Positions 46,890 to 59,015 of a stretch of 64,000 nt of DNA are shown here, in pieces (the stretch's first letter is position 1; the number at the start of each line of letters is the position of its first letter). A program made the position numbers and the translations under genes. The notes below the pieces were generated by a model. The model was not told the origin of the DNA. It worked only from the letters and a program-made list of their open reading frames with translations, and did no database searches. Source of the DNA: Podospora anserina (Eukaryota); contig CM030337.1 in the NCBI GenBank assembly GCA_017654855.1, positions 1,798,001 to 1,862,000 of the forward strand, read 5' to 3'.

Positions 46890-46980
46890 GGTTGTGTAGT
46901 GTAGTGGTTATCACTCTGGATTTTGACTTGTTCAAGTCACATTCCTTCCAGTAACCCCGGTTCGAACCCGGGCACGACCT
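46890..46980 (+). tRNA. tRNA-Gln(TTG) with a short (~19 nt) intron
   Basis: Acceptor GGTTGTG/CACGACC, D-arm TAGTGTAGTGGTTATCAC, anticodon stem CTGGA/TCCAG with TT-TTG-A followed by the intron, T-arm CCCGG-TTCGAAC-CCGGG; T-runs downstream. Confidence 0.93.
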
Positions 46981-53294: not shown

Positions 53295-54346
53295 ATGTCC
53301 GGCGCAGCAGTATGTTGGTCCAAACACCCCACTGTCTCCCAATATCAACATCACGATAACTAACCACCCAACCCTCCCCATCCAGGACCGCGAAGCCGTC
53401 TTTCCCACCCGGCAATCGCTGGGTATCATGAAAGCAAAGCTCAAAGGCGCCGAAACAGGTCACAGTCTCCTCAAAAGAAAGAGTGAAGCTCTCACCAAGT
53501 CAGTCTCCCGTCCCCATTCCCCTCCCAGGCCCCCCGAAACCATACCTAACCTCCCCGTCCCCCCCCAGACGCTTCCGCGAAATCACCCGCCGCATCGACG
53601 AAGCCAAGCGCAAGATGGGCCGCGTAATGCAAATCGCCTCCCTCTCCCTCGCCGAAGTCACCTACGCCGTCGGCGGCAACATAGGGTACCAAATCCAGGA
53701 ATCCGCCAAATCCGCCCGCTTCCGCATCCGCGCCAAGCAGGAAAACGTCTCGGGCGTCCTCCTCCCCGCGTTTGAGAGCTACCAGACCGAGGGGAACAAC
53801 GACTTTGCCATGACGGGTCTCGGCAAGGGAGGTCAGCAGGTGCAGCGGTGTCGCGAGACGTATGCGAGGGCGGTGGAGGCGCTCGTGGAGCTGGCGAGCT
53901 TGCAGACGGCGTTCGTGATTTTGGACGAGGTCATCAAGGTGGTGAACAGGCGAGTGAATGCCATGTAAGTGACAGACCTGAGATTTTTGAGAGTGGATGG
54001 GATGGGTTGGGGTGCTAACATTTGCCTAGTGAGCATGTCATTATTCCCAGGACGGAGAATACCATCAAGTGTAAGTGGAACTCCACCCTGTTTTAGATGG
54101 ACTGTACTGACTTTCCCAGATATCAACTCGGAGCTTGACGAGCTGGACAGAGAGGAGTTTTACAGACTGAAGAAGGTTGCCGGCAAGAAACAGCGAGACA
54201 CAGCTGAGCAAGATGCCGAGATGAAGGCTAGGAAAGAAGCGCAAGCTGCAGCTGCAGATGAGCAGAACCAAGCGCCAAATGCCGCGGCGGACGACGCGCC
54301 AGCTGATCTGTTGGCTGCGGAGGAGGATGAAGATGTCATCTTCTAA
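53295..54346 (+). CDS. VMA8: V-type ATPase subunit D (multi-exon)
   Basis: DREAVFPTRQ, GHSLLKRKSEAL, ENVSGVLLP, LASLQTAFVILDEVIKVVNRRVNA, ELDELDREEFYRLKK. Confidence 0.96.
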
Positions 54347-54618
54347 GGGAGTTGTTGGTCTTGGACCATCGAGCGTTGTTGTCACTGTCGCATGTTGGAA
54401 GGGCGTGGTTAGAGTCATTGGTCAGCACATTGTTTCATTAGGCATAGGCGCAATCCGGGAGTTGCTTGTTTCCATGTTTTTATTTCATTGGGTATCTCTA
54501 ATTCCCTTCGCTGAGGCATCAATGAGCCGATTACGCTAAACCTGTACCATTCGGAGCATTACATCCTACTTTACCTATCAAACCAGTTATATGTGGTACC
54601 TCAACTCCAGCCCCCAGC

Positions 54619-55518
54619 TTACTGGCGCTGGTACGTGACCTTCATCGTCTTCTCGCCATTCTTCAGCGCCATGCCAGCAGTATTCTCCTTGGCAGTAATA
54701 GCCCCGGCTTCTGCGTCGTACTCGACGAAAGCAATCCCGCTGCGACCAGGGACAGTACGGACTTCGCGGAAACCTTCGAAGCGGCTGAAGATACCAGTGA
54801 GCTCGTCCTTGCCAAAGTCGTCGGGGAGGTTCTGAACGAAGAGAATGCGGTTGGGTGGGAGGTATTCATCGGGTACGACAGCGGCGGCACCAGCACCGGT
54901 GGACTTGAGGCCGGCACCACGAGCGTTCTTGGTTGGGCGGCCACTGACGGCGGTTTCGGCACCTGGAAGAGGACGCTTGAGGCGCTTTTGCTCTTCGGCT
55001 GTTTCGAGCGCCTTCTTTTTGTCTATTGATAATTCATGTTAAAACCAAGTTCAAAACGGAGAAATGTTAACGAGGGCATACCCTTCTCTGCCATGCGCCG
55101 GCGCTTGTGGGCATCAAACTCCTCCTCGTTGCCGGTCTGTTTAACGGTGGCATCGCTTCGAGTGCGGGCAAGGGCGACTTGCATGGGCTTCTCGAACAAC
55201 TCGAACCCCTGGACTTCTTCGATAGCCGTGAGGGCGGACTCGGGCTTGTCGAAAACAACAAATGCCTGGCCCTTGGCCTTGAGGTTGGTCTTAACAACGA
55301 TATCGATCACATTGCCGTACTCGGAGAAGATGACCATGAGGGCTTCCTTGAGCGGTTCGGGCTTGACGCGCTCTTCGAGGTTGCGCACGTAGACACTATG
55401 CGATAGAGGATTGTGTTAGTTAATTCCAATGCGACGCGATACCTGAGATGGCTGATGCCTTGTATGTGTCGGAGTGCAATGACACATACGTGGCGATTGG
55501 CTGTTGTCCTGAAGCCAT
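54619..55518 (-). CDS. U1A: U1 snRNP protein A (U1A/U2B''/SNF family, two RRMs); intron 1 = 55489-55396
   Basis: MASGQQPIAT|VYVRNLEERVK...FSEYGNVIDIVVKTNLKAKGQAFVVF...KPMQVALARTRSD; C-terminal RRM PPNRILFVQNLP...VRTVPGRSGIAFVEY. Confidence 0.9.
55462..55489 (-). promoter_or_regulatory. U1A-binding hairpin (U1 snRNA stem-loop II mimic) overlapping the intron-1 5' splice site of U1A
   Basis: Minus strand GTATGTGTC-ATTGCACTCC-GACACATAC: perfect 9-bp stem, C-G closing pair, 10-nt loop identical to U1 SLII. Confidence 0.85.
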
Positions 55519-56030
55519 TTTTTATCTTTGTTGATGATGTTTATGATCAGGCAGCAACTGCTGATTTGTTTGCAAATGTTGAATGTTGTGGTTGAACTCG
55601 GAAAGGTTTTTTGATGATTGGAGGACAAGACATGAAGTTGGAGATTGGAGACGGTGCCAAAACAAAGTGGGCCTTGGTGGGCACTAGACACATGGTCCTA
55701 GCGTCCTTGCAGCTGGCGCGGGGACTGCCCCACTGGAGAACCACCTCCAGGGCGCATGCATCCCGCTTCTCCCGCTGAACCAGCGTCACGGTGTGCAGCA
55801 ACACACTGGGCAACTCCGACCAAGGAACCAACAAGTCATTTCCCTTCCTCTTCAACACTTCCCAACTTCTTCTCTTCCAAGTTCTTGGGGCTCCCCATCT
55901 TGTCATCTTTGCTCCAAAAATGCGCGAAGAGACCCGGTGAGCAGGCGCATGCTTACACACACGCTGTGTACGCTATTCTACTCTTTCACCTCGTTTCCGG
56001 CGGTCCGAGATCCTTTGATATAAGCCTACC

Positions 56031-59015
56031 ATGGACGAAACGATACCACAAGCCGTCATGGCAACCGCCACACCCTCTTTCGACAACACCAGTGCGTGGC
56101 ATAACTTTACACTATGGACAACTCAGCATCTCAAGATGAGTATGAACATGTCGAGGCTCGCGCCGTCGCTGGAAGACTTGGTGTTGGCAGGACCAAGGAT
56201 GGTCATGAAGCTGGGGAAACTGGGCTCTTTTATCTCGTTTCCAGATGCGGTTGACAACTTTGGACAACGAACCATGGCCGATCCCACCGATGCCGGTGTC
56301 TTTTCGTCGGCACTCTCGTCCTCGACCAGCAGCACGACAGCCAGCATACTCAGCGACGTCGCATCCTCTTCCGCCACTGCCGCCGCCGCCGCCGCCTCTG
56401 CTGCTGCTGAAGATCCTACCGCCTCGGTATCCCGCTTCTCGATGGAGGGAGCGAGAGGAATTGGGAGCGTTTTGAGCTACGCGACAAGCAAATGGGCCAT
56501 AACTTGCATTGCGATGGCTATCCTCTTTAACCGGACGCACATATTTGCCGCGACTCGGCGTCGTTTACGACTTGCATGGCATATCCGGGTGCTGCTTCGA
56601 CTCCCAACCATCTTGCTCCTGCTCTGGCAGGCTCGCAGACTTCTCCAGTCCATTCAGTGCCAGACCTCTCCGGATTTCGCCCAGTTGCGGTGGGGCGATC
56701 CTAACAAGAGCTTCGACGTTATGTTCTCCGAAGCAAACAGCTTTTTCCATGGACTGAGCTCAACTTTGCTGTTCGGTGCCAGCGACGAGGATTCATGCCG
56801 TTCTGTCCGGATGGTACCATGGGATAATCAGGAACAATCGGAGCTCGTTGGCTCGCTCTCCCGATTATGGCCACTTTTCCTGACGTTTTGCTTTGGCCAG
56901 TTTATGGAGGTGCTTTCGTGCACTGTACAGGGACGCCCGACGGGCACCGAGACGGGCACAACGCTTTTTGAACAGTCTCTGGCTTTTGCAGAAGCTGATG
57001 CTGCTATCAGCAGCCAGCTCGGATGGGGTCTTTTCGCCTCCAATGCTTCTAAAGCAGCAGCGGATGCGAACATGGGCACCAAGATTGCCCTCACACGTGC
57101 CATGATCATGAAGCGCGTCAACACACCCCCTGAAGTATTGCTGGTCACTTTTATCTCAACCATGAGCTACGTCACTAGCCACATATTGGGATTGCTGAAC
57201 TTGCAGCCAAGATTCCGTCTGATCAGTACCGGATTCTATGGGCTTTGCTCAATGGGGTGCATGGTTTGGAGTACCATCAACTTTTCTGTTGACGATCCTA
57301 CCAGCCAGGGGCTGTTGAGATATCCCACGGTGTACATCATCGGAATCATTCCTCACACTCTCATCTTGATTGGCATCATTTCATGTGCGGTCATTTACTT
57401 CGTGGCCCTGACACTTTCCGCTCTCGCTGTGCCCGAGGCTGGGACCGGCGGCGAGACGGAACAGCTTACCTTCAAGCAGCGCTTCCTCCGTGCTCATGCC
57501 AACATGCAGGCAAACGTTTCACTTTCCGAGATCCGGATTAGGATGGATATGGACTTTTACACCGCGCTGGTCCGGGCTGGCTTTGGTGCCATCACCATGG
57601 CTAGCGAGGCGGTTTATCTTAATGAGGACCACAAGGTGAACTTGAAGCGGTATACCTGGCTGGAAGAGGACCGGTTCCGTGAGATTGAGGACCTGAAGAT
57701 GCAGTGGATCGGAGGCGTTCCTGGATCTCGGTTTGATACGGTCGGCACGATAGGACTTGTGCCGGTTAAAAATGGACAGCCGGGGGTCAACAATGGGTAT
57801 GCCAGGGAGAAGTCGGCGCAGCAGGTTTCCAAGAAGGACGGTACTGGCAGGAGACAGAGGGATGGGGTTGGGGCTGCGGAGAGGAGTTCCAGGTGGCTCA
57901 TGGCGGTTGATTACATGATGCATATTTCGCGTCTTGTGGTGGTTACTTGGGCATTGTGTACGGTCAGGTTTCTCAGGTTTGTTGGTTGGAGGAACCCGCC
58001 GCGTTGGCTGAGGGGGTTGTCTGAACGGCCGAAGAAGTCGGACGGGCGGGATAAGAAGGGGAGTTCGAGACAGAATGGGGAGTCGTATGCTGATATTCTT
58101 TCTCCTGGCAATGGGGGTTATTTTACGATTCCGCGGGACGACCAGGTTGATGTGGAGGAGCTGCTCAGAAGTAGGATGGACAACCGCAACGAGGCAGAAG
58201 TCGACACCAAGCTCTACAGCTACTTCTTGCGGGATGGCTGGTGGGGGAATAAGGACACCAGCGGGGAATACGTCCCCTCCCACCCTTTGATCACGGCCGG
58301 CAACGAGGAGATCGATGTCAACGACCCTGACTTTGACACGACAAGCATGATCTCCACGACAGAGACCTCTATCGAGAGTGACTTTGGCTGGGAGACTGAC
58401 AATGACAACAACAACGACTGGCTTGACGACGGGCAGCGAACACCCACGCAGCAAAACCCCGGCACCGAGCTCACCTCCGCTCTCGTCTCTGCCCTCCAGC
58501 GATCAAGGGAACCCTCCCCCGTGTTGGACACCCCCATCGACCCAACCACCCTCGCCCGACTTTTACACCCCCAGTCCGCCGCCGACCGAGACGAAGCCCA
58601 GACCCTGGCCGCCCATTTATCCTCCGGCACGATAATGACGCGCTCCAAGTACAAGCAAGCGCTCCAGCGGCAGCGAGCGCAGATTTTGCTCACCACCCTT
58701 AACCGTGGCAACCCGCTGCAGAGGATGAGTCCAGAAGAGGAGGAAAGACAGCTTGAGCAGCTGCTTCTCACTCGGCGGTCGGAGGCGCAGGCGAGGGGGG
58801 GGCAGGAGTCATGGAAGGAAGGGGGGGCGGGGTTGGGGGCGGAGGGGCCGCAGTGTGTGGTTTGTCAGTGCGCGCCGAGGACGATTATTGTGTGGCCGTG
58901 TAGGTGTTTGGGGTATTGTGATGATTGCAGGGTGAGCTTGGCGATGAACAATTATGACAAGTGTGTTTGCTGTAGGAGGGAGGTGAGTAGTTTTAGTAGG
59001 ATTTATGTTCCTTGA
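56031..59015 (+). CDS. multi-pass membrane RING E3 ubiquitin ligase, Asi1/Asi3-like
   Basis: 994-aa single-exon ORF with several TM segments; C-terminal CVVCQCAPRTIIVWPCRCLGYCDDCRVSLAMNNYDKCVCCRR. Confidence 0.85.
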   Translation: MDETIPQAVMATATPSFDNTSAWHNFTLWTTQHLKMSMNMSRLAPSLEDLVLAGPRMVMKLGKLGSFISFPDAVDNFGQRTMADPTDAGVFSSALSSSTSSTTASILSDVASSSATAAAAAASAAAEDPTASVSRFSMEGARGIGSVLSYATSKWAITCIAMAILFNRTHIFAATRRRLRLAWHIRVLLRLPTILLLLWQARRLLQSIQCQTSPDFAQLRWGDPNKSFDVMFSEANSFFHGLSSTLLFGASDEDSCRSVRMVPWDNQEQSELVGSLSRLWPLFLTFCFGQFMEVLSCTVQGRPTGTETGTTLFEQSLAFAEADAAISSQLGWGLFASNASKAAADANMGTKIALTRAMIMKRVNTPPEVLLVTFISTMSYVTSHILGLLNLQPRFRLISTGFYGLCSMGCMVWSTINFSVDDPTSQGLLRYPTVYIIGIIPHTLILIGIISCAVIYFVALTLSALAVPEAGTGGETEQLTFKQRFLRAHANMQANVSLSEIRIRMDMDFYTALVRAGFGAITMASEAVYLNEDHKVNLKRYTWLEEDRFREIEDLKMQWIGGVPGSRFDTVGTIGLVPVKNGQPGVNNGYAREKSAQQVSKKDGTGRRQRDGVGAAERSSRWLMAVDYMMHISRLVVVTWALCTVRFLRFVGWRNPPRWLRGLSERPKKSDGRDKKGSSRQNGESYADILSPGNGGYFTIPRDDQVDVEELLRSRMDNRNEAEVDTKLYSYFLRDGWWGNKDTSGEYVPSHPLITAGNEEIDVNDPDFDTTSMISTTETSIESDFGWETDNDNNNDWLDDGQRTPTQQNPGTELTSALVSALQRSREPSPVLDTPIDPTTLARLLHPQSAADRDEAQTLAAHLSSGTIMTRSKYKQALQRQRAQILLTTLNRGNPLQRMSPEEEERQLEQLLLTRRSEAQARGGQESWKEGGAGLGAEGPQCVVCQCAPRTIIVWPCRCLGYCDDCRVSLAMNNYDKCVCCRREVSSFSRIYVP

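Follow-up and report, generated by a model that had tools for sequence, protein, structure and literature searches.

In this study, we describe an RNA hairpin at the start of intron 1 of a U1A-family gene, found in a 64 kb window (the whole stretch of DNA that was analysed). The 5' arm of the hairpin includes the donor of the intron, and its loop and C-G closing pair are those of the U1A site of U1 snRNA stem-loop II. We consider it probable, at roughly 0.7, that this hairpin is a cis-acting autoregulatory element: free U1A would clamp the hairpin, block U1 snRNP and thereby lower its own synthesis. Autoregulation of vertebrate U1A through its 3' UTR is a textbook example of feedback by an RNA-binding protein. 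The reading proposed here is based on the conservation of the hairpin among fungal orthologs and on the selective retention of intron 1 in assembled RNA.

The gene and the elements of its first intron are listed in Table 1. RRM_1 matches are found in both exon 2 and exon 3. Human U1A (3pgw_A, E 1.8e-24) is the best relative of solved structure, and the alignment of its RRM1 to the encoded protein covers residues 12-111. A protein of Podospora comata (248 aa) shows 97% identity with exon 2, and the RNP2, RNP1 and TxSD motifs are invariant in the encoded protein family (24 aligned orthologs). The gene is of the two-RRM usp102/U1A type; several orthologs are annotated as U2B''. The branch-site-like AACTAAC of intron 1 has a CTAAC or CTGAC at the corresponding position in orthologous first introns, and it overlaps the stop codon of the reading frame that results when the intron is kept. 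Several public models of the gene begin at an ATG within the hairpin or translate through intron 1, and one cluster of read-through proteins comes from Diplocarpon rosae. The hairpin and the retained intron would account for this repeated misannotation of the U1A gene.

Table 1. The U1A-family gene and the elements of its first intron (positions are those of the window).
Feature	Position	Strand	Basis and remarks
U1A-family gene, two RRMs, three exons	54619..55518	-	sequence reading; ATG at 55518, TAA stop 54621-54619
Exon 1, 29 nt (MASGQQPIA + 2 nt of a Thr codon)	55490..55518	-	sequence reading
Intron 1, 94 nt, phase 2, GTATGT..ATAG	55396..55489	-	sequence reading; RNA contigs
Hairpin, 28 nt	55462..55489	-	sequence reading, ViennaRNA, covariance model
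Hairpin 5' arm, includes donor GUAUGU	55489-55481	-	sequence reading
Hairpin loop, 10 nt, AUUGCACUCC	55480-55471	-	sequence reading
Hairpin 3' arm	55470-55462	-	sequence reading
GTATCG, candidate alternative donor (CAG/GTATCG)	55437..55442	-	sequence reading
AACTAAC, branch-site-like, intron 1	55415..55421	-	sequence reading
Exon 2, RRM1	55082..55395	-	RRM_1 domain match
Intron 2, 59 nt	55023..55081	-	joint 55022->55082 in 4/4 RNA runs
Exon 3, linker + RRM2 + stop codon	54619..55022	-	sequence reading, RRM_1 match

All nine stem pairs of the hairpin are Watson-Crick pairs. For the 28-mer alone the same hairpin is predicted by ViennaRNA at -10.6 kcal/mol (z = -3.34), with 1 of 200 shuffles as stable, and it forms the core of the centroid structure when folded with 141 nt of context. 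The 12-mer made up of the loop and its closing pair occurs a single time in the window. At one mismatch or fewer it is also matched in 20 of 100 shuffled sequences, so that the motif by itself is not significant; likewise, ATTGCAC was counted 8 times in the window versus 8.76 expected. On both strands of the window, the intron 1 hairpin is the sole perfect hairpin combining a stem of at least 9 bp with a 10-nt loop, and the remaining seven ATTGCAC sites have stems of at most 4 bp. The combination of stem, loop and motif is significant, unlike the motif alone. The gene holds only one ATTGCAC, in a single terminal hairpin. Downstream, the ATTGYAS motif is absent from the minus strand between the stop codon and position 54300, which leaves no PIE-like 3' element in that interval. 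Rfam searched over the whole window at gathering scores returned tRNA only and no U1 or U1A-related family; between 55300 and 55650, at E up to 10, it returned four chance-level matches, none of them to U1, U1A or PIE.

Scanning metagenome contigs with a protein pattern, without regard to the hairpin, gave 38 related loci. A hairpin at the same donor, with GUAUGU or GUACGU forming the 5' arm, is present in 21 of them, all Sordariomycete-like or Leotiomycete-like (20 distinct hairpin loci, L022 being a duplicate of L021). A covariance model built from 21 sequences scored 64.6 bits at the window hairpin, where its antisense echo was the only other match of the window; it gave one match of 38-67 bits in every hairpin locus and in the window. 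Over both strands of the 165 kb searched, its only other matches were 18 antisense echoes and two weak ones (12.9 and 9.4 bits). Both features of U1 type, a C-G closing pair and C as the seventh loop nucleotide, occur in 21/21 distinct sequences. Loop positions 1-7 are invariant across these sequences except for one C-to-U change at position 5 (L021, AUUGUAC), and the loop starts with AUUGCAC in 20 of the 21 distinct hairpins. AUUGUAC is also the sequence of the second PIE box; as a documented U1A site it was found in none of the literature matches listed, which were unrelated microRNA and other papers. Loop positions 8-10 vary (UCC 14, CCC 2, AUC 2, UGC 1, ACC 1 and AUCC 1 among the 21 distinct sequences). 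The loop is 10 nt long in 20/21 and 11 nt in L005, and stems measure 8-11 bp.

The stems of most orthologs have a predicted energy of -10.6 to -12.5 kcal/mol; in L016 one mismatch reduces this to -4.4 kcal/mol. Paired cells make up 96.8% of the stem alignment, and RNAalifold independently recovers the same helix. Intron position +4 covaries (C-G 13, U-A 6, U-G 1), and L036 has an 8-bp stem of another sequence in which both partners of the pairs at +3 and +7 have changed. Four stem positions include G-U wobbles, where the opposite strand would have A-C mismatches. In the main alignment, both-sided changes affect only one of nine pairs, a count matched in 489 of 500 shuffles; formal covariation is thin because six of the nine stem pairs fall on donor-consensus positions, and many of the aligned sequences are closely related, e.g. 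five Hyaloscypha-like loci. The remainder of intron 1 varies among orthologs both in sequence and in length (52-204 nt). Taken at the level of sequence, these data indicate that the hairpin is not a product of chance and that the constraint acts on pairing in the sense-strand RNA. The preliminary description had read a perfect 9-bp donor hairpin with a loop of the U1 stem-loop II type, which sequence and ViennaRNA confirm exactly. It had also suggested that intron 1 of the orthologs be examined for a conserved loop with compensatory stem changes, and the alignment bears this out in 21/38 loci, with G-U changes in addition.

The pattern of conservation agrees with the rules of U1A recognition. 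The contacts of U1A, according to the available part of PMC2203988, are to AUUGCAC and to the CG pair that closes the loop. U1 stem-loop II is set apart from U2 stem-loop IV by a C:G pair at the base of the loop and by C at position 7, and the loops of fly and human U1 differ only at positions 8-10, as stated in the excerpted text of PMC5992148.

The hairpin is missing at the donor in 17 of the 38 loci, among them Lecanoromycete-like, Eurotiales-like and Dothideomycete-like orthologs whose RNA-binding motifs are the same; thus, the device is not needed for U1A homeostasis in general. Weaker AUUGCAC stem-loops with stems of 4-5 bp occur in L003 (at -217), in L008 (at -151), in L030, where the stem-loop adjoins the donor of the following intron, and in the Penicillium-like L037, where it lies over the 3' splice site. 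Those of L008, L030 and L037 show no significant folding stability (z -0.17 to +0.86). The four were not accepted as members of the hairpin group and are kept as leads only.

Sixteen sequencing runs had been guessed to be RNA, and four of them (X1, X2, X5 and X7, from four studies) proved to be so by the intron 2 joint. Intron 1 is kept in the main contig of all four runs, and intron 2 is removed in the same contigs. The spliced joint 55395->55490, which skips 94 nt (GT..AG, minus strand), appears in X2 only. This is the sole run with both forms, at a depth of 210.6 retained vs 70 spliced, a ratio that comes from one run and from assembled contigs, which are not quantitative and lose rare variants. 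In the window, the retained intron leaves an ORF of 32 codons that ends at the stop TAA 55422-55420, and retention truncates the ORF to 18-43 codons in 21/21 sequences. Intron 1 is retained selectively, and always unproductively. The hairpin lies ~100-140 nt from the transcript 5' end.

Earlier claims about the consequences of splicing at this intron fared unequally. That retention of the 94-nt intron leads to a premature stop was correct from the sequence, and the retention that was to be sought in RNA is the main assembled form in 4/4 runs. A second GT at 55442 was also correctly said to shift the frame into a premature stop: use of this donor would add 47 nt and lead to a stop at 55309-55307. 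The proposed diversion of transcripts to this donor was not supported. The joint 55395->55443 is absent from the contigs of the four RNA runs, in which rare forms may be lost. Orthologous introns do not conserve the site, and Leotiomycete-like introns of 52-72 nt are too short for an equivalent donor. With the joint missing from these contigs and no conservation, the 55442 donor was rejected as part of the mechanism.

We propose that intron 1, while the transcript is still nascent, folds over its first 28 nt into a copy of the hairpin that U1A binds on U1 snRNA, with the 5' splice site itself as the 5' strand of the stem. Whenever U1A exceeds the capacity of U1 snRNA, its RRM1 would bind the loop and the closing pair and lock the stem. 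Base pairing between the locked donor and the U1 snRNA 5' end would be prevented, intron 1 would remain, the frame would end after 32 codons and no U1A would be produced. When free U1A is scarce, the stem, moderately stable at about -10.6 kcal/mol, may open often enough for U1 snRNP, and productive mRNA would be made. U1A presumably binds the hairpin, and this binding rather than the stem alone would set the rate of splicing. The retained-intron RNA presumably undergoes nuclear retention or decay, and we assume that stem-loop II of this fungus's own U1 snRNA carries an AUUGCAC loop. Autoregulation at the level of splicing through a mimic that buries the donor, as put forward in the preliminary description, is thereby kept in its main part, for which the conserved hairpin and the selective retention of intron 1 speak strongly, and given up as to the diversion to 55442.

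The stem might also act by structure alone, as a brake that sequesters the donor, maybe in response to temperature or transcription rate, with a loop that is read by no protein. Artificial hairpins across splice signals inhibit splicing in yeast; moreover, the stem alone is predicted to be stable in most orthologs, the whole donor is covered and retention of intron 1 is high. However, such a brake leaves unexplained why the closing pair and seven nucleotides of the loop do not vary, given the drift at positions 8-10 and elsewhere in the intron, and why this invariant part matches the U1A recognition element within U1A's own gene. We therefore regard it as improbable.

We give no better chance to the idea that U1A binds the hairpin for other ends, with the retained RNA or the excised intron serving as reservoir, sponge or assembly platform, or with U1A promoting use of the donor. 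Despite its early stop, the RNA that keeps the intron predominates among the assembled forms in 4/4 runs; it is thus not merely degraded and might hold protein. Yet a gene of modest expression with a single site in each transcript would make a weak sponge, and recruitment of the snRNP is hard to envisage, as the RRM1 of U1A within U1 snRNP is already taken by U1 snRNA. A locked stem is incompatible with pairing of the donor, and the unproductive outcome of retention in 21/21 sequences fits repression.

It is very unlikely that the loop is read instead by another RRM protein of the family (U2B''/Msl1-type) or by some other factor. The AUUGCA core is common to the targets of U1A, U2B'' and SNF, and the U2B'' annotation of several orthologs would fit such cross-regulation, but all 21 hairpins carry the U1-type C7 and C:G instead of the G and the U:G or U:U pair that mark the U2 type, and the gene itself is of the usp102/U1A type. 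A palindrome that arose by chance, or an element acting in the DNA and overlapping the donor, e.g. the site of a dimeric transcription factor, can practically be dismissed: the sequence is indeed a DNA inverted repeat at a short distance from the transcript 5' end, but the four wobble positions keep pairing in the sense-strand RNA only, conservation is strongest in the loop and not in the arms, which change by compensation, and the 21 loci share the position of the hairpin at the donor although their flanking sequences are unrelated.

The autoregulatory reading has close counterparts in known systems. In yeast RPL30 and in other ribosomal-protein genes, excess protein blocks splicing of its own transcript and unspliced RNA accumulates. 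As in the case of L30, the pre-mRNA imitates, across or next to its 5' splice site, the RNA to which the encoded protein primarily binds, and unspliced non-coding pre-mRNA accumulates for the regulated intron only, here on the evidence of contigs. Unlike RPL30, the regulator is a spliceosomal snRNP subunit, an snRNA is mimicked rather than rRNA, and the step proposed to be blocked is the binding of the donor by the regulator's own particle, U1 snRNP. The splicing-inhibition class of ribosomal proteins is summarised in the accessible portions of PMC8216456 and PMC6884704. Vertebrate U1A autoregulates via the PIE in its own 3' UTR, as outlined in the excerpts of PMC9977717 and PMC6884704. With this system, as so described, the element shares the protein family, an AUUGCAC-type mimic of U1 stem-loop II in the protein's own mRNA and a logic, proposed for the present gene, by which protein not bound to U1 snRNA represses its own synthesis. 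Within the 3' UTR, the vertebrate PIE keeps a fixed spacing to the poly(A) signal, whereas the present hairpin lies at the start of intron 1. The PIE has two sites in internal loops to which two U1A bind cooperatively, in contrast to a single terminal hairpin, and it inhibits poly(A) polymerase, whereas the effect observed here is intron retention.

U1 snRNA stem-loop II itself has the same AUUGCAC-led 10-nt loop, C-G closing pair and Watson-Crick stem; unlike it, the element is an intronic copy outside any snRNA gene, with a stem sequence set by the donor consensus. In the cross-regulation of U1C and U1-70K, as far as the available text of PMC3798272 describes it, homeostasis of U1 snRNP proteins is likewise coupled to the splicing of their own or partner pre-mRNA, although through alternative exons or sites seen by the assembled snRNP and not through an snRNA mimic that buries a donor. 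Plant U1A is reported not to bind its own mRNA, according to the excerpted part of PMC5829640. Neither a feedback element of the kind proposed here nor autoregulation of fungal U1A was found described in the literature or in Rfam, a search that ran outside supplementary tables of retained introns or NMD (e.g. those of a F. graminearum preprint).

On balance, we lean towards the wider view that the hairpin is an ancient splicing-level homeostat of U1 snRNP common to Sordariomycete-like and Leotiomycete-like fungi, in which U1A would gate the access of its own particle to a donor, and that U1A autoregulation arose repeatedly or moved, acting on splicing in these fungi versus polyadenylation in vertebrates. 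Part of this view are the related AUUGCAC stem-loops of L030 and L037, which place the motif at different splice signals of the gene region in further Pezizomycotina lineages. The split between Sordariomycetes and Leotiomycetes dates back some hundreds of millions of years. If the autoregulatory reading is true, fungal U1A would control itself at a different step from its vertebrate relative, by hiding a splice site whose recognition falls to its own snRNP, and one RNA-protein recognition module would have given rise to convergent or relocated regulation. With its 28 nt, the hairpin would then be a compact, natural splicing switch that responds to a protein, available in fungi amenable to genetics, and it would offer a direct handle on how the cell senses free versus snRNA-bound U1A.

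Exon 2 of the U1A-family gene (see the table of features) aligns with RRM1 of human U1A over residues 12-111 (E 1.8e-24), and its next structural relatives are human U2B'' (5.3e-21) and the single-RRM U2B'' of S. pombe (1.5e-13). The closest database proteins are two-RRM proteins of 245-250 aa from Sordariales, the Podospora comata protein matching exon 2 at 97%; U1A or usp102 is the annotation of more distant orthologs. Sequence comparison suggests that the gene is the U1A ortholog and the fungus Podospora-like. Its RNA contigs end at about 55595-55631 and those of a divergent neighbour (56019-59015, plus strand; a 998-codon open frame with a Cys-rich RING-like stretch at its end) begin at about 55795-55811. 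The intervening stretch of about 160 nt (55632-55794), uncovered in four runs, resembles a short promoter region shared by the two genes. Elsewhere in the window, a 91-nt tRNA match (46890-46980, plus strand, 54.2 bits) suggests an intron-containing tRNA gene, because it exceeds the 71-position model.

Features of the U1A-family gene and of the hairpin at its first donor (window positions)
Feature	Position	Strand	Basis
Start ATG	55518	-	sequence reading
Exon 1, 29 nt	from ATG 55518	-	sequence reading
Intron 1, 94 nt, GTATGT to ATAG	55489-55396	-	sequence reading
Hairpin 5' arm, donor and three bases	55489-55481	-	
Hairpin loop, AUUGCACUCC	55480-55471	-	
Hairpin 3' arm	55470-55462	-	
AACTAAC branch-like site of intron 1	55421-55415	-	sequence reading
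Exon 2, one RRM_1 domain	55395-55082	-	domain match
Exon 3, one RRM_1 domain	55022-54619	-	domain match

The preliminary description had placed a mimic of U1 snRNA stem-loop II at the first 5' splice site, and this is confirmed: a perfect hairpin with a C-G closing pair spans the first 28 nt of intron 1 and holds the donor in its 5' arm. The 28-mer folds at -10.6 kcal/mol (ViennaRNA; z -3.34, an equally good fold in 1 of 200 shuffles), and the centroid fold of a 141-nt context has the hairpin as its core. By itself, the loop motif occurs in the window about as often as expected (8 ATTGCAC observed, 8.76 expected), and the 12-mer of loop and closing pair is matched with at most one mismatch in 20 of 100 shuffles. 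Over 64 kb and both strands, the hairpin is the window's only perfect one with a stem of at least 9 bp and a 10-nt loop; the remaining seven ATTGCAC sites have stems of at most 4 bp. Apart from chance-level unrelated ones, no Rfam model matches the hairpin region (55300-55650, E up to 10; whole window, gathering scores). The most economical reading, to which we give a probability of roughly 0.7, is a putative negative feedback by U1A on the splicing of its own intron 1.

A scan that does not presuppose the hairpin, using two protein patterns inside RRM1 from a 24-ortholog alignment against metagenome contigs, returned 38 loci (L001-L038). The same kind of hairpin opens the intron directly upstream of the RRM1 exon in 21 of these. 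L022 duplicates L021, and a covariance model was built from the remaining 21 distinct sequences, the window and 20 loci, many of them mutually related. This model finds one match of 38-67 bits in the window and in each of the 21 loci; its other matches in 165 kb on both strands are 18 antisense echoes of these palindromes, plus two weak matches, in L030 (12.9 bits) and L010 (9.4 bits). ATTGCA(C/G) loops with stems of at least 4 bp number 22 in 101 kb of sense strand, all at most 217 nt upstream of an RRM1 exon and none elsewhere.

In some public gene models and some metagenomic gene calls the N-terminus is a direct translation of the hairpin, for example where ortholog models start at the ATG inside GT-ATG-TGT. 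Such N-termini occur in 6 of 120 related database proteins, four of them named (Lasiosphaeris hirsuta, Apodospora peruviana, Xylariaceae sp. FL1651 and Xylariomycetidae sp. FL2044), in 7 of 149 further representatives and in more among later matches. Gene models and metagenomic gene calls of this gene are often wrong at the N-terminus, starting at the in-hairpin ATG or reading through intron 1; misannotated ortholog proteins include P0038, P0065, P0080 and P0044 (named) and P0037, P0082, P0133, P0138, P0140, P0148, P0160, P0165 and others. In some Aspergillus models of 1378-1455 aa the gene is fused to the tubulin-folding cofactor D gene.

All 21 distinct sequences close the loop with C-G, and their loop positions 1-7 show a single C-to-U change and no other variation. 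Positions 8-10 vary (UCC 14, CCC 2, AUC 2, UGC 1, ACC 1, and AUCC 1 in an 11-nt loop). The sole departure at positions 1-7 is a loop AUUGUAC on two Hyaloscypha-like contigs (L021:1438-1465 and L022:984-1011), a variant presumably present also in the second box of the vertebrate polyadenylation inhibition element (PIE). AUUGCAC and the closing CG pair are the U1A contacts (PMC2203988); U1 stem-loop II is told from U2 stem-loop IV by a C at loop position 7 and by its C:G closing pair, and the last three positions are the sole difference between the fly and human U1 loops (PMC5992148). The loop conservation is the pattern expected for U1A-type RRM recognition, on the assumption that the fungus's own U1 loop is AUUGCAC. 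It argues against a brake on splicing exerted by the structure alone, which we consider unlikely. U1A might also bind the hairpin for another purpose, for example as a reservoir, a prospect no better than the preceding one; recognition of the loop by a paralogue appears more improbable still.

Of the stem cells, 96.8% are paired. At intron position +4 the base and its partner covary (C-G 13, U-A 6, U-G 1), and G-U pairs at four stem positions place the constraint on the sense-strand RNA, because they would mismatch on the opposite strand. The automatic alignment puts L036 out of register; its 8-bp stem differs in sequence and has changed on both sides at +3 and +7. Together with these compensatory changes, the G-U pairs speak against a DNA-level or chance palindrome, which is very improbable. 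The donor consensus takes part in six of the nine pairs, which leaves little scope for formal covariation: both-sided changes affect only one pair of the main alignment, a count reached by 489 of 500 shuffles. The number of cells with a both-sided change (6, versus 2.3 in shuffles) and the share of paired cells each exceed all 500 shuffles. On the 3' side of the hairpin the introns, 52-204 nt long, have in common a branch site (CTAAC or CTGAC), the AG and nothing else.

Sampled words of 54500-56000 were matched by public runs at 65-76% (sixteen runs) or at 100% (six runs). Four partial-match runs (X1, X2, X5, X7), from four different studies of one organism, are RNA: the assembled contigs of each contain the joint 55022->55082 left by removal of intron 2 (GT..AG on the minus strand). 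The contig lacking intron 2 continues through intron 1 in X1, X5 and X7, and in these three the spliced form of intron 1 was not assembled. The X2 assembly graph splits into a 154-nt unitig retaining intron 1 (depth 210.6) and a 60-nt unitig carrying the joint 55395->55490 (depth 70), about 3:1 by assembly depth in this one run; contigs are not quantitative and lose rare variants. Since introns 1 and 2 contrast within single contigs in all four runs, intron 1 is inefficiently removed. Its retention leaves 32 codons before a TAA at 55422-55420, and retention cuts the reading frame to 18-43 codons in all 21 sequences. Two outcomes had been anticipated for a masked donor, of which retention is seen in all four runs. 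Diversion to a second donor at 55442 is unsupported, because the joint 55395 to 55443 is absent from the contigs of the four runs, where rare variants may drop out, the site is not conserved and the 52-72-nt Leotiomycete-like introns have no room for it.

The donor hairpin is absent in 17 of the 38 loci. In most hairpin-less genes the Val-Tyr codons before RRM1 are split off as a 7-nt micro-exon between two short introns; these orthologs look Lecanoromycete-, Eurotiales- or Dothideomycete-like, and one intron takes the place of this arrangement in Sordariomycete- and Leotiomycete-like genes. AUUGCAC loops nevertheless lie nearby in three micro-exon-type loci (L036, L030, L037). The short-stem loops (4-5 bp) of L008, L030 and L037 fold weakly and are not individually significant; those in L030, L036 and L037 are leads.

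Distribution of the donor hairpin and of related features among the metagenome loci (taxon labels inferred from the nearest named protein over RRM1)
Feature	Group	Loci
Hairpin present	Sordariales and Chaetomiaceae-like	L001, L002, L013, L015, L017
Hairpin present	Coniochaeta-like	L011, L032 (L032 100% to C. hoffmannii)
Hairpin present	Phialemonium-like	L003
Hairpin present	Microdochium-like	L016 (one mismatch, 204-nt intron)
Hairpin present	Leotiomycete-like, Hyaloscypha	L004, L019, L020, L021, L027
Hairpin present	Leotiomycete-like, Cadophora	L018
Hairpin present	Leotiomycete-like, Mollisia-like	L025
Hairpin present	other Leotiomycete-like	L005, L006, L026
No hairpin	Lecanoromycete-like	L023, L024, L028, L033
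No hairpin	Eurotiales-like	L014 (upstream sequence too short to show exon 1, as in L030), L029, L037
No hairpin	probable Dothideomycete-like	L007, L031
No hairpin, no intron at position		L009
No hairpin, distant 32% homolog		L038
Micro-exon		L007, L010, L023/L024, L028, L029, L031, L033, L035, L036, L037
Second AUUGCAC, 8 nt past the intron 2 donor, besides the donor hairpin of intron 1		L036 (second AUUGCAC, 1441-1460)
4-bp AUUGCAC stem-loop, 13 nt past donor		L030:39-56
5-bp stem-loop, 3' arm ending at intron 2 3' splice site AG	96% to Penicillium proteins	L037:1480-1500
AUUGCAC loops on short stems, upstream of ATG		L008:44-61, L003:1280-1296

The proposed mechanism resembles that of ribosomal-protein genes whose products halt splicing of their own transcripts through mimicry of their target, with RPL30 as the classic case. 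Such genes form a described class (PMC8216456, PMC6884704). The closest known system is vertebrate U1A, reported to autoregulate through the PIE in its 3' UTR (PMC9977717, PMC6884704). The two share protein family, recognition motif and logic and differ in location (intron versus 3' UTR), in architecture (one terminal hairpin versus two internal loops) and in the step that they regulate (splicing, as proposed, versus polyadenylation). No ATTGYAS motif was found in the 3' region of the fungal gene, and plant U1A reportedly does not bind its own mRNA (PMC5829640). Full-text literature searches, covering few subscription journals and no supplements, turned up no account of a hairpin with a U1A site at the 5' splice site of a fungal gene, so that a prior mention is possible; U1A is nowhere named in a published screen that reported 17 conserved RNA structures in fungi.

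Under negative feedback by U1A on its own splicing, free U1A would bind the loop and closing pair and stabilise the donor-containing stem, which would keep U1 snRNP from pairing with the donor. Unspliced RNA with an early stop would accumulate, and the stem would open when free U1A is low.
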